From: Patescibacteria group bacterium
GTDB lineage: Bacteria; Patescibacteriota; Patescibacteriia; UBA9570
Length of the DNA: 64,000 nt
Direction: 5' to 3'
NCBI GenBank assembly: GCA_024277435.1
Contig: JAJRVJ010000028.1
Coordinates: forward strand, 97,300-161,299
In this document: piece after piece, positions 2,435-8,493 of the stretch
How positions within the stretch are numbered: the first letter of the stretch is position 1
Layout of the letters: each line of letters opens with the position of its first letter
Position numbers and translations under genes: made by a program
Notes under the pieces: model-generated
The model's database searches: none
What the model was told of the DNA's origin: nothing
What the model saw: only the letters and a program-made list of their open reading frames with translations

Positions 2435-3076
2435 ATGAAGCAGAATATCAGAACACAATCTAAAGAAAAAATCCCCGCAGAAAAGAATACATCAAAGAAT
2501 GTTGTAGTAATTGATAATTTTGATTCATTCACATTTAATTTGGTTGATTATTTTAAACAAGCCGGAGCAGAACTTACTGTATATAGAAACGCTGCGGCTA
2601 TATAAACAATCGAAGATCTTCAACCTGATCTTATTGTGTATTCCCCGGGACCTGGTAATCCGCAGCAGGCTGGTAACGTACTGCAATACATTACACATTT
2701 TGCAGGGAAGATTCCACAATTTGGTGTATGTTTAGGGATGCAAGCTATGATTGAAGCGTTTGGCGGAACATTACGAGTGCTTGATGAGCCAGTGCACGGT
2801 AAAGCTTCGGCTGTTCAGCATGATGGAAAAGGTATTTTTAAAGATCTATCAAATCCAATGGAGGTTGGTCGTTATCATTCATTAGCTGCTAAAGTAATGC
2901 CGGAAAACTTTGAAATATCAGCCACAACTGTAGATAGAGATAATGATAAAGTAGTGATGGCCATTCGTCATAACACACTTCCTATAGTTGGTGTGCAGTT
3001 TCATCCAGAGTCTATCCTTACATATAAAGATCAAGCTGGTTTGCAAATGATTCATAATGTAATGAGTAGTATTTAG
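2435..3076 (+). pseudogene. trpG: Anthranilate synthase component II / glutamine amidotransferase (TrpG), interrupted by an in-frame TAA at 2603-2605. It is otherwise full length with no frameshift.
   Basis: ATG 2435 gives MKQNIRTQ...NVVVIDNFDSFTFNLVDYFKQAGAELTVYRNAAAI, then TAA, then TIEDLQPDLIVYSPGPGN...GVCLGMQ...HPES, all in one frame. The stop aligns to a sense (Leu/Glu-like) position of TrpG/PabA. Confidence 0.75.
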
Positions 3077-3078
3077 TT

Positions 3079-4062
3079 ATGGAAAAAGTATTACGCGCAA
3101 TTCAGCAGGGTGAAACCCTTACGCAACAACAAGCTGAAGCTGCAATGGACACAATGATGTCTGGCAAGGCAGATCCTATTCAAGCTGGTGCATTATTAAT
3201 GGCATTAGCAACTCGCGGAGAAACTGCCGATGAAGTAATTGGTATGTTGCGTAGTATGCGCAAGCATATGACCACCATTGATTTAGAAGTTCCGGTATTA
3301 GATACCTGCGGTACAGGAGGGGATGGCATGAATACATTTAACATTTCTACAGCTGTTGCCTTAGTATGCGCCGCTCTTGGTGTGGCCGTAGCTAAACATG
3401 GTAATCGCGCTGCTAGTTCTAAATGTGGTAGCGCAGATATTCTAGAAGCACTTACTATTCCTATTGAGCTGACTGGTGATGCTGCTAAAAAATATTTTTC
3501 TAATAATAATTTTGTGTTTCTTTATGCACGCAAATATCATGCAGCTATGAAACATTTAGCACCTATCCGCAAGGCATTAGGGGTTCGTACTATTATTAAT
3601 TTTCTTGGACCACTTTCTAATCCCGCTCAGGCTAAACATCAGCTTGTAGGTGTATCTGATCCACTAAAAGCTTAAATTATTGGCCAGGCATTAATCGAGT
3701 TAGGTTCGCAACATGCCATTATTGTGTATAGTGATGATGGTTTAGATGAGGCGAGTATTGCGGCACCTACCTCGGTGCTAGAAATGACACCAACCGATAC
3801 GAAGCGCTATCGTATTGAGCCGCGCACAATGTATACCATTGAAGAGATTCGAGGCGGTGATCCAGAGCATAATGCTGAAATAATGAAGCAATTAGCTGAC
3901 GGCAAAGGTTCGGCTGCATTAATTGAAGTGGTGGCAATGAACGCTGGTCTAGCGTTGCTGGCTGCTGACGCTGTATCTTCTTATGAAGAAGGTAAGCTTC
4001 AGGCAGAACAATTATTACGATCACATAAGTTATCTGATATTCTCAATAAAATGCAACAATAA
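3079..4062 (+). pseudogene. trpD: Anthranilate phosphoribosyltransferase (TrpD), interrupted by an in-frame TAA at 3673-3675. Both halves are in the same frame and conserved.
   Basis: N-terminal part carries the GTGGDG motif. ...VGVSDPLKA, then TAA, then IIGQALIELGSQHAIIVYSDDGLDEAS... The stop aligns to the conserved Leu of the VLPIAE region. Confidence 0.75.
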
Positions 4063-4066
4063 CCAT

Positions 4067-5475: not shown

Positions 5476-6695
5476 AGATTCCGAAAACATTATTTTTTAA
5501 AACTCAATTTGATGCTGATAAACAAGGGCATTTTGGAGAATTTGGTGGTAGATATGTACCAGAGATGCTTATTCCTGCCTTAGATGAATTGAATGCAGCT
5601 TACGAAGAAGCTAAGCATGATTCAGTTTTTATTCAACAAGTATTAGATTTATACAAACACTATATTGGCAGGCCATCAGCACTCTATTTTGCAGAACGGT
5701 TAACAGCTAAGTTGGGTGGCGCTAAAATATATTTAAAAAATGAAGGCCTTAATCATACTGGCGCGCATAAGATTAATCATTGCGTAGGCCAGGCCCTTCT
5801 GGCGCAGCGCATGAATAAAAAGCGGTTAATTGCAGAAACTGGTGCTGGCCAACATGGTGTGGCCACTGCAACAGTTGCCGCGAAGTTTGGATTTGCATGC
5901 ACGGTGCATATGGGAGAAGTAGATATGGAGCGCCAGGCGCCAAATGTGCAATTAATGAAGCAGCTCGGCGCTGAGGTGATTCCTGTAAAAGAAGGGAACC
6001 GAACATTGAAAGATGCGGTAACCAGTGCTATCCAAGATTGGATGGGTGATCCGGAAGATGCATATTATTTACTTGGCTCGGCGCTTGGACCACACCCATA
6101 TCCAACGATGGTACGTGATTTTCAAAGTATTATTGGAATGGAGATTGCTGAACAATTACAGGAGCGTGAAGGTGTAGGTGTGTTGCCAAATTACTTGGTA
6201 GCCTGTGTTGGCGGCGGCAGTAATGCCATCGGAATGTTTAATGCATTCTTAGATGTACCAGAAGTGCAACTAATTGGCGTAGAGGCGGGTGGCACAGATA
6301 TTTATACACCTGGCCAGCATGCTACACGCTTAGCCAGCACGCCGCAATTAGGAGTGGTAGAGGGGTATAAATCATACTTCTTGCAAGATGAGCATGGTAA
6401 TGTAGAAGCAACACACAGTATATCAGCCGGATTAGATTATGCTGGTATTGGCCCGCAACATGCATATCTGCACTCGGTGGGTCGGGTGCGGTACGAATCG
6501 GCTTCTGATAATGAGGCTCTTAATGCTGTGAAGACTACGAGTCATTTAGAGGGTATTATTCCAGCCTTAGAATCTGCCCATGCAATTGCGTACGTTATGC
6601 GTTTAGCTCCAACGCTTGTGCCAGATGAAATTGTGGTAGTGAATGTATCTGGTCGCGGTGATAAAGATCAACATATTTTGAAACAGTATCTATAA
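5472..6695 (+). CDS. trpB: tryptophan synthase beta chain
   Basis: 407 aa. Motifs GGRYVPE, HTGAHKINH, GGGSNAIG. ATGA overlap with trpF. Confidence 0.92.
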   Translation: MKIPKTLFFKTQFDADKQGHFGEFGGRYVPEMLIPALDELNAAYEEAKHDSVFIQQVLDLYKHYIGRPSALYFAERLTAKLGGAKIYLKNEGLNHTGAHKINHCVGQALLAQRMNKKRLIAETGAGQHGVATATVAAKFGFACTVHMGEVDMERQAPNVQLMKQLGAEVIPVKEGNRTLKDAVTSAIQDWMGDPEDAYYLLGSALGPHPYPTMVRDFQSIIGMEIAEQLQEREGVGVLPNYLVACVGGGSNAIGMFNAFLDVPEVQLIGVEAGGTDIYTPGQHATRLASTPQLGVVEGYKSYFLQDEHGNVEATHSISAGLDYAGIGPQHAYLHSVGRVRYESASDNEALNAVKTTSHLEGIIPALESAHAIAYVMRLAPTLVPDEIVVVNVSGRGDKDQHILKQYL

Positions 6696-6697
6696 AT

Positions 6698-7510
6698 TTG
6701 GATTTATTTATGAGCCGAACTATTGCAGAACAATTAGCATTAGTAAAACAAGAGCAGCGCCTTGGCTTCATGACGCATGTAGTTATTGGGCATCCGAGCT
6801 TAGAGGAAACCAGGCAACGTGTAGAAATTATGGCTGCCGCCGGAGTAGATATTATTGAATTACAAATTCCATTCTCCGATCCATTAGCTGATGGCCCTGC
6901 CATTGCTCAAGCTAACCATCAAGCTGTTGCCAACGGGGTAATTATAGAAGACTGTTTCGTACTGGCGAAAGAATTATCAAACACTGTAGATATCCCACTG
7001 CAGTTTATTGGTTACTACAACACCGTACTGAATTATGGCATAGAGAAATTCATGGCAGATTGTGTAGCCGCTGGTATTGCTGGATTAACATTTCCAGATA
7101 TGCCAATCGACGAAGAGCAGTATGAACAATTTTATTATCATGCGCAGCAAGCTGGTTTACCAGTGGTGCAATTAGTATCTCCAGCCACAGCACCAGAGCG
7201 CCTGCAGTTGATAGCAGAACACGCAACTGATTTAGTATATTGCGTGGCTCGTTTTGGAGTTACCGGAGCTACCGATGAATTGAATACACAGCTCGGTGAG
7301 TATCTGGATAGAGTACGCCAATATGTTACACTACCTTTAGCTGTAGGTTTCGGGATCTCTACCCCTCAACATATTCAAGCACTACACGGTAAAGCGGATA
7401 TGGCCGTTATTGGAAGCGCTTTACTGAATGTACCAATCAATAAATTAGCTAATACATTACAACCACTATGCGCCGCATTGTCCGTACCACCCACAAACAC
7501 TATCCAGTAG
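6698..7510 (+). CDS. trpA: Tryptophan synthase alpha chain. The start may instead be ATG 6710 (MSRT).
   Basis: 270 aa with TIM-barrel TrpA features ([17 protein letters not shown]). 3' end overlaps the aroB start. Confidence 0.85.
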
Positions 7511-8493
7511 TTATCGAGCAGAATGCTGTTCGTAATTTTGAATTTCCAAAAAACAGTATTGTTATTACAGATTCAACGTTACGAAAGAAATATGGAAAGC
7601 TTTGGAAAAAGCATTCTGTATTAAGTTTTTCTGCAGGCGAACATCATAAGCGCCTAGATACTGTTGAGCAATTATGTGAGCAGTTGGTTGCATTAGATGC
7701 CGATCGCGATTCTAGCATCATTGCATTTGGCGGCGGTGTAGTAGGAGACGTAGCAGGATTTGTAGCGGCAGTATATATGCGTGGTATTCCTGTATATCAA
7801 GTGCCTACAACATTGCTAGCTATGGTGGATGCATCGGTTGGTGGAAAAACCGCTGTAGATCTCGCATCTGGAAAAAATCTTGTAGGAGCATTTCATCAGC
7901 CCGAGGCTGTAGTGATGGATTAACAATTCATTGTAGATTTACCAGACGAGCAATTTATTAATGGTATGGGTGAAGTTGTAAAACATGGCGTACTTGAACC
8001 TACGTTATTTACTTGGCTAGAAAAGAACAGTGAAAAAATTCTCAAACGTGATGTAAGCACTATTCAAAAAATGTTAGTAAAGAATATAGAGATCAAACAA
8101 GCTATTGTAGAGAGTGATGAAAAAGAATCTGGTCAACGCATGTTATTAAATCTCGGACATACATTTGGTCATGCTGTGGAACAACTAAGTGGTTATGCTA
8201 TTCCTCATGGGCAGGCCGTGGCAATAGGGCTTGTATATGCTATGGCATATGCACGAATGGAAGAGAGTGAGCGAGTAGTGAGTTTATTGCACGCATTTGG
8301 ATTACCAAGCCATCTGGAAACACCATATTCCGCAAAATCTATGGTGAAGGCAATGCAATCGGATAAAAAGAATCGCGGAAAAAATATAACGTTAGTACTA
8401 CCTCAAACAATTGGCGAAGTACATATCCATACAAACGAAACACCTAGTAAGATAGAACGGTTTCTTAAAAAATATCATGACCAAAACCGCTAG
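7468..8493 (+). pseudogene. aroB: 3-dehydroquinate synthase (AroB), interrupted by an in-frame TAA at 7921-7923.
   Basis: ...[27 protein letters not shown], then TAA, then QFIVDLPDEQFINGMGEVVKHGVL...HTFGHAVE, in the same frame. The stop aligns to the Leu of the conserved DLD segment. Confidence 0.75.

Follow-up and report, generated by a model that had tools for sequence, protein, structure and literature searches.

In host-dependent bacteria that are undergoing reductive evolution, genes are lost by way of nonsense (unitary) pseudogenes, in which single-base changes have placed stop codons where the genes of relatives are intact. Bacteria of the candidate phyla radiation (CPR), or Patescibacteria, are known for the loss of biosynthetic functions and are generally regarded as lacking pathways for amino acid synthesis; a complete operon for the shikimate, Trp, Phe and Tyr pathways is unusual for this radiation. 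Such an operon, of 16 genes, lies at the start of the window that was analysed here, a stretch of 64,000 nucleotides (64 kb) from contig JAJRVJ010000028.1 of assembly GCA_024277435.1 (this genome is abbreviated W). Three of its genes, trpG, trpD and aroB, and a fourth, cyclase-like gene elsewhere in the window are each interrupted by one in-frame stop codon (Table 1). These stops are probably genuine nonsense mutations of very recent date, in genes that an uncultivated CPR bacterium can dispense with as it begins to lose the synthesis of aromatic amino acids. As in the pseudogenes of reductive evolution, the stops would have arisen by single-base changes where relatives are intact, the truncated products would be devoid of catalytic residues and the essential genes are untouched. 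Unlike those pseudogenes, the interrupted genes of W carry no frameshifts and no sign of relaxed constraint, three of the hits fall in an otherwise perfect operon, and the apparent age of the events is near zero.

Other described systems also produce or tolerate stops of this kind. In G:C-to-T:A mutators with defective 8-oxoguanine repair (mutY/mutM type), the mutation spectrum favours nonsense changes over indels; two of the four stops in W are accounted for by G-to-T changes at Glu codons, and for the other two a C-to-A or G-to-T step would fit. Laboratory ochre suppressor tRNAs of Escherichia coli (anticodon UUA) read both UAA and UAG, and the in-frame stops of W are exclusively UAA or UAG and stand in genes that look selected; unlike the laboratory strains, W has no such tRNA in the window. 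We know of no CPR bacterium in which natural ochre suppression has been established. In the UGA reassignments, to Trp in Mycoplasmatales and to Gly in Absconditabacteria and Gracilibacteria, stops likewise occur in frame within conserved genes, and some CPR bacteria are among those that recode. In contrast to W, those reassignments affect many genes, specify one consistent residue and are accompanied by loss of the codon as a terminator, whereas TAA is the genuine terminator of 46 of 62 genes in the window (74%; TAG ends 12 and TGA 4). TAA is therefore not reassigned in W, and on this point the stop-codon argument of the first-pass annotation, an earlier reading of the same DNA, was sound. Furthermore, according to a screen that covered over 250,000 genomes, every known bacterial stop reassignment involves UGA (PMC8629427).

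The gene order of the operon was found to be identical in a small clade of relatives, comprising loci L081 and L088 (GCA_040960315.1), L084 (Logan SRR15669518) and L085 (ENA ERZ25072999), with protein identities of 46-80%, and the trpG, trpD and aroB genes were uninterrupted in all of these relatives. Relatives at 58-70% identity were found to have the operon without interruption. The three in-frame TAA codons described in W by the first-pass annotation were seen both in the letters of the window and in the deposited record. On one NCBI contig (188,709 bp) the interrupted genes are represented by separate gene calls, of 56 and 146 aa for TrpG, 198 aa for TrpD, and 151 and 175 aa for AroB; the stops are therefore present in the deposited sequence. 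Pairwise and multiple alignments placed each TAA opposite exactly one residue of the full-length orthologues, with no gap and with both flanks aligning well. The GTGGDG, GVCLGMQ and HTFGHAVE motifs were all present, in agreement with the earlier description of two conserved halves that remain in frame.

The residues that stand opposite the stops were not those that had been expected. The first-pass annotation had placed all three TAA codons at conserved positions of Leu-like character. At the trpG column, the three nearest relatives have TCT, TCT and GAG codons (Ser, Ser, Glu), and a wider alignment of 60 homologues held Asp in 19, Glu and Ala in 10 each, Ser in 5 and Leu in 1. The corresponding trpD codons were GAA, GAA and CGG (Glu, Glu, Arg), with Glu in 46, Arg in 14 and Leu in 1 of 87 homologues, and those of aroB were CCA, CCA and CCT (all Pro), with Pro in 38, Thr in 31, Val in 22 and Ile and Leu in 15 each of 128 representatives. 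All three columns were therefore variable, and there was no residue that they had in common. Since the stops are not aligned to Leu, the proposed origin by three like TTA-to-TAA changes fails. Among the operon stops, only that in trpD is evidently a one-step change (GAA to TAA); the TCT and CCA codons of the relatives' trpG and aroB genes are two steps away from TAA. A Leu ancestor is conceivable for aroB alone, where Leu makes up 12% of the column.

When all frames were searched for pairs of long open segments parted by one stop, and the remainder of the window was annotated, a fourth in-frame stop was revealed. This TAG codon had been missed by the earlier reading. The interrupted open reading frame (ORF) reads across the TAG as a 649-aa protein that has weak similarity to the Pycsar cyclase PycC. 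Only five homologues (P0242-P0246) were found among 5.8 billion proteins; they are 637-644 aa in length, none of the five is interrupted, and those located on the fetched contigs (L088, L089 and L090) share the gene neighbourhood of W, within relatives of the clade. Since the fourth stop is in an unrelated gene, the pattern extends beyond the aromatic operon and is a property of dispensable genes in this genome.

Approximately 60 other genes in the window were intact, including those encoding 25 ribosomal proteins (S12, S7 and the S10-spc cluster), EF-G, EF-Tu, SecY, Adk, Map, RuvX, DnaB, RecR, AsnRS, AspRS and a P-type ATPase. No frameshift was found in any of the approximately 65 genes of the window, and no damage other than the four stops was detectable. 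The relatives' loci contained no internal stops; all same-frame stops there were ordinary gene boundaries, and in-frame stops are thus not a trait of the clade. If four stops were distributed at random over the 55.7 kb of coding sequence, the probability that at least three would fall in the operon is 0.06, and that all four would fall in the operon and the cyclase-like gene is 0.008; both values were calculated post hoc.

Table 1. Positions of the aromatic amino acid operon, the four interrupted genes and their in-frame stop codons, numbered from the first nucleotide of the window.
Feature	Position	Strand	Evidence
16-gene aromatic amino acid operon	1..14635	+	ORFs; Pfam and NCBIfam matches; gene order of L081, L084 and L085; colinear alignments
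trpG (anthranilate synthase glutamine amidotransferase subunit), with the stop at codon 57	2435..3076	+	Alignments; solved structures
In-frame TAA in trpG	2603..2605	+	Ser (TCT) or Glu (GAG) in relatives
trpD (anthranilate phosphoribosyltransferase), with the stop at codon 199	3079..4062	+	Alignments; 198-aa fragment P0010 in the NCBI record
In-frame TAA in trpD	3673..3675	+	Closest relatives have Glu (GAA); one-step G-to-T
aroB (3-dehydroquinate synthase), with the stop at codon 152, close to where the N- and C-terminal domains meet	7468..8493	+	Alignments; fragments P0247 and P0248 in the NCBI record
In-frame TAA in aroB	7921..7923	+	Pro (CCA or CCT) in the closest relatives
Cyclase-like gene (lineage-specific and GC-rich; class III nucleotidyl cyclase-like domain at the C-terminus), with the stop at codon 483	21383..23332	+	Alignment to homologues; weak PycC match
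In-frame TAG in the cyclase-like gene	22829..22831	+	Opposite a Glu that does not vary among the five homologues (codon GAG in L088 and L090); G-to-T

Alignment to solved structures was used to locate the functional residues of the interrupted enzymes. The catalytic Cys (in GVCLGMQ) and the His and Glu (in HPES) of TrpG, the GLDE metal-binding motif of TrpD and the whole of the C-terminal metal-binding domain of AroB were located downstream of the respective stops. The TrpG triad, the TrpD GLDE motif and the AroB metal-binding residues are established as essential in these enzyme families. With these residues downstream of each operon stop, the truncated products should therefore be inactive. 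The genes are interrupted relative to full-length orthologues and the interruptions are not common to the relatives, which is the pattern of a pseudogene.

The remainder of the operon appeared to be in good order. Its genes are arranged as aroF (encoding DAHP synthase, with the 5' end cut by the start of the window), trpE, trpG, trpD, trpC (start at 4067), trpF, trpB, trpA, aroB, an aroA-aroK fusion, an aroD-aroE fusion, aroC, a gene for a 189-aa protein, pheA (PDT), tyrA (PDH) and a chorismate mutase gene. As judged by Pfam and NCBIfam matches and by alignment, the 13 genes other than trpG, trpD and aroB were full length, and the gene junctions consisted of gaps of 2-18 nt or short overlaps, consistent with the earlier view that the neighbouring genes are intact and tightly coupled. 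The 189-aa protein (12535-13104), which is of unknown function, is 29% identical to the product of a 177-aa gene in L081 and L088. In L085, the contig name of which ends in '2x', the ligA gene is split into overlapping calls of 125 aa and 516 aa, and aroA and aroK are separate overlapping genes (the L085 anomalies are at 1938-3819 and 15548-17334); these are probably low-coverage frameshifts, unlike the indel-free window.

The EF-G protein is 100% identical to one from the 188,709-bp NCBI contig. Its nearest named relatives, at 70-76% identity, were from Kerfeldbacteria, Komeilibacteria, Uhrbacteria and the 'Patescibacteria group', all of which are Patescibacteria/CPR, and the EF-G sequence places the host as a Patescibacteria (CPR) bacterium. 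In the ribosomal protein cluster S5 runs straight into L15, with no L30 gene between them; the missing L30 fits a CPR host. The GC content of the window was approximately 39-41%.

Under the favoured explanation, single-base substitutions would have made stops from sense codons in trpG, trpD, aroB and the accessory cyclase-like gene, and at least two of the four would be G-to-T changes that hit the first position of a Glu codon (GAA to TAA in trpD and GAG to TAG in the cyclase-like gene). The truncated products would be without their catalytic residues, the pathway would be inactive and the cell would rely on external aromatic amino acids; reductive evolution would then have been caught at its first step. 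A mutation spectrum skewed towards G:C-to-T:A changes, for example through weak 8-oxoguanine repair, would favour Glu-to-stop changes over indels and would account for the finding that the four disruptions are all nonsense substitutions, with no indel among them. We infer that the stops are real in the cell and that the enzymes are non-functional. The residues opposite the four stops are inconsistent (Ser, Glu, Pro and Glu), and the location of all four stops in dispensable genes, with none in the approximately 60 others, is the outcome expected of selection on real mutations. In addition, when all possible single substitutions in the coding sequence of the window were considered, 4.5% overall created a stop, compared to 9% of G-to-T and C-to-A changes combined and 12% of G-to-T changes, the class that is therefore likeliest to produce stops here.

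Several results weigh against this explanation. There was no acceleration of the substitution rate in W, with 213 W-unique changes compared to 252 L081-unique changes in nine genes, as measured by a Tajima-type relative-rate test with L085 as the outgroup. Downstream of the stops, where 46 changes were unique to W and 42 to L081, no relaxation was seen, and W did not deviate at any of 33 near-invariant columns of TrpD or 39 of AroB. The absence of relaxed constraint means either that the mutations happened extremely recently or that selection still acts on the genes. Tests for relaxed selection have low power for young events, and the null result is therefore read as 'very recent' and not as 'not pseudogenes'. 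In young bacterial pseudogenes, nonsense mutations usually make up approximately a quarter to a half of the disrupting events; given that share, the probability that all four disruptions would be nonsense is approximately 0.004-0.06. Three strikes in one operon with 13 perfect neighbours is also an odd mode of decay, and the G-to-T direction could be demonstrated for only two of the four stops. Finally, no sister at 90% identity or above and no independent assembly was found in the protein collection, the GTDB representatives or the JGI metagenomes. The closest proteins were at most 55% identical among GTDB representatives and, among the 5.8 billion proteins, at most 70% (TrpD) or 81% (EF-G) identical, and scans of JGI metagenomes, one by protein and one with a 29-nt DNA pattern that spans the trpD stop, gave no match.

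The alternatives named by the first-pass annotation (recent inactivation, artefact and read-through) are still the right ones to be weighed. The strongest rival to recent mutation is an error of the consensus or of sample preparation, in which wrong base calls (such as G-to-T changes from oxidised guanine) or minority alleles in the consensus of a metagenome-assembled genome would have been recorded while the genes are intact in the cell. The G-to-T change is the classic oxidative-damage artefact, and at least two of the four changes are of this type; the sequence comes from a single assembly, all of the window proteins being singleton clusters from one NCBI contig, and apart from the stops the interrupted genes look perfectly conserved. 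However, four stops would imply approximately 90 random errors in 55.7 kb, or approximately 44 if all were G:C-to-T:A, which amounts to a poor consensus, and yet no frameshift was present and EF-G deviated at none of 247 near-invariant columns in an alignment of 119 homologues. Random errors should also strike essential genes, which is difficult to reconcile with the confinement of all four stops to the operon and the cyclase-like gene (the post hoc value of 0.008 given above). The length of the contig, 188.7 kb, suggests good coverage. It is therefore unlikely that consensus error is behind the four stops.

A less probable alternative, to which we give only slight credence, is leaky termination or natural ochre-type suppression, in which a tRNA with a UUA anticodon would read UAA and, by wobble, UAG, and low-rate read-through would yield the enzymes at reduced levels. 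Under such suppression, nonsense changes in non-essential genes would be nearly neutral, frameshifts would still be purged, and four stops that are all UAA or UAG, with no UGA and no frameshifts, are the set that an ochre suppressor would rescue. The columns in which the stops are located are variable or tolerant, the genes being strongly conserved elsewhere, and no decay was detectable downstream. The base that follows the three internal TAA codons is A, A and C, and not the T that follows 18 of the 46 genuine TAA stops, but this difference was not significant (P ~0.1). Neither was there a significant excess of back-up stops after the genuine stops, with 7 compared to 5.0 expected at the +1 codon and 16 compared to 11.5 within three codons.

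The case for suppression is also weakened by the predominance of TAA as a terminator, since efficient suppression would be costly, by the absence of the stops from all of the relatives and by the restriction of known bacterial reassignments to UGA (PMC8629427). The sole tRNA gene in the window encodes tRNA-Lys(UUU); no suppressor tRNA was found in the window, which spans only 64 kb, and no release factor genes were present in the same 64 kb. A free-living-like lineage that tolerates UAA and UAG through a weak ochre-type suppressor or leaky termination, with a functional operon and with the stops as nearly neutral polymorphisms, is marginally less probable still. A skewed mutation spectrum is favoured over ochre-type suppression because it needs nothing unprecedented.

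A candidate for a hidden tRNA after the operon, the GGTTCGATTCC fragment near 15.19 kb, was rejected: it is not a gene, and its only match was to a tmRNA-like T-loop of 13 nt (E = 0.09). The tRNA/tmRNA-like 3' fragment at 15184-15215 (GGGTTCGATTCCCCTCGGTCGCAC) has no matching 5' half, was not called by ARAGORN and gave only the T-loop match in Rfam. It may be the remnant of an attachment site beside a GC-rich insert.

Functional split enzymes, produced by termination at the stop, re-initiation at the next in-frame start and assembly of the pieces into an active enzyme, are very improbable. In-frame start codons are present 10-16 codons past each stop, and the restart codon in aroB (ATG at 7966) is near the start of the C-terminal domain. 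However, the trpG and trpD stops fall within single domains, re-initiation would cost each enzyme 10-16 residues, among them, in AroB, the conserved L-x-T/D-L-P segment, and none of the relatives has genes that are split in this way.

Programmed recoding was assessed by several approaches. No flanking motif common to the four stops was found, and the minimum free energy of the 60 nt after each stop was not unusual, with z-scores between -0.9 and +0.9 compared to the local background. Programmed read-through by means of a conserved stop was rejected, as all orthologues have sense codons at these sites (TrpD of P0001-P0009 and P0011-P0016; the operons of L081, L084 and L085; and the cyclases P0242-P0246). 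Pyrrolysine or selenocysteine recoding was likewise rejected, because three of the stops are UAA and the lone UAG is opposite an invariant Glu. Although in-frame stops with conserved sequence downstream would be expected of codon reassignment (TAA as one particular amino acid) or of context-directed programmed recoding, this is the least credible of all the explanations: reassignment is effectively refuted already by the stop-codon usage and by the inconsistent residues of the closest relatives (Ser, Glu, Pro), in-frame TAA codons occur in just three of approximately 65 genes, and the stops share no motif or structure and are not kept in the orthologues.

Several other features of the window were recorded. 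The cyclase-like gene and the adjoining divergent gene for a 137-aa protein (20755-21168, minus strand) have a GC content of approximately 61-63%, with 0.70-0.82 GC at four-fold sites, whereas four-fold GC in the genes that flank this pair is 0.28-0.44. High GC was also observed for the gene pair in two relatives, L088 (9433-9843, minus strand, and 10001-11929) and L090 (4250-4660, minus strand, and 4862-6781). Four-fold site identity between these genomes was 0.39-0.52, compared to 0.30-0.34 expected at saturation, and is thus near saturated. Since the GC content has been kept although the sites are near saturation, the gene-specific high GC has been maintained in a low-GC genome throughout a long divergence.

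Other short GC-rich patches (0.51-0.73 GC) with sharp borders were located at 15700-16270, 58400-59000 and 59200-59800. Their ORFs (15815-16213, 58393-58716, and 59195-59725 or, on the opposite strand, 59123-59626) had no Pfam or PADLOC match, and those tested by tblastn had no match in the relatives' loci. In L088 a different GC-rich gene, encoding 131 aa, occupies the position after the operon (5795-6190). A hairpin at 15716-15766, with a near-perfect stem of approximately 20 bp (GGGAAGCGCTGTATGGAC...GTCCATACAGCGCTTCC), is located at the left edge of the GC-rich patch that follows the operon; it was found only as a chance microRNA-like match.

Downstream of this patch, an 864-aa fusion of an ATP-grasp ligase (BesA-like) and an M20 PepT-like peptidase is encoded at 16356-18950. 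The fusion is conserved in L090 (871 aa); its counterpart in L088 (7051-8925) is only 624 aa in length and has a divergent N-terminus (36% identity). The str operon (29455-35977) is interrupted twice: a gene for a membrane protein of 147 aa (30517-30960) separates S7 from EF-G, and one for a TPR protein of 314 aa (33615-34559) separates EF-G from EF-Tu. At 60095-62979, AsnRS (445 aa) is encoded in tandem with a short bacterial-type AspRS (465 aa compared to a 590-aa profile), which aligns with the profile in two parts, as would be seen if it had no insertion domain.

The consequences of these findings depend on the nature of the stops. If they are errors, the assembly needs to be corrected before metabolic inferences are drawn from it, and if they are read through, this would be the first natural UAA/UAG suppression to be reported in the CPR radiation. 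In metabolic reconstruction, a pathway that is probably dead would be rated as almost complete by automated annotation. If the stops are real, this genome shows aromatic amino acid synthesis at the very outset of its loss, in one of the few CPR lineages that retain the pathway, which would help to date, and to understand, how CPR bacteria came to depend on other cells.

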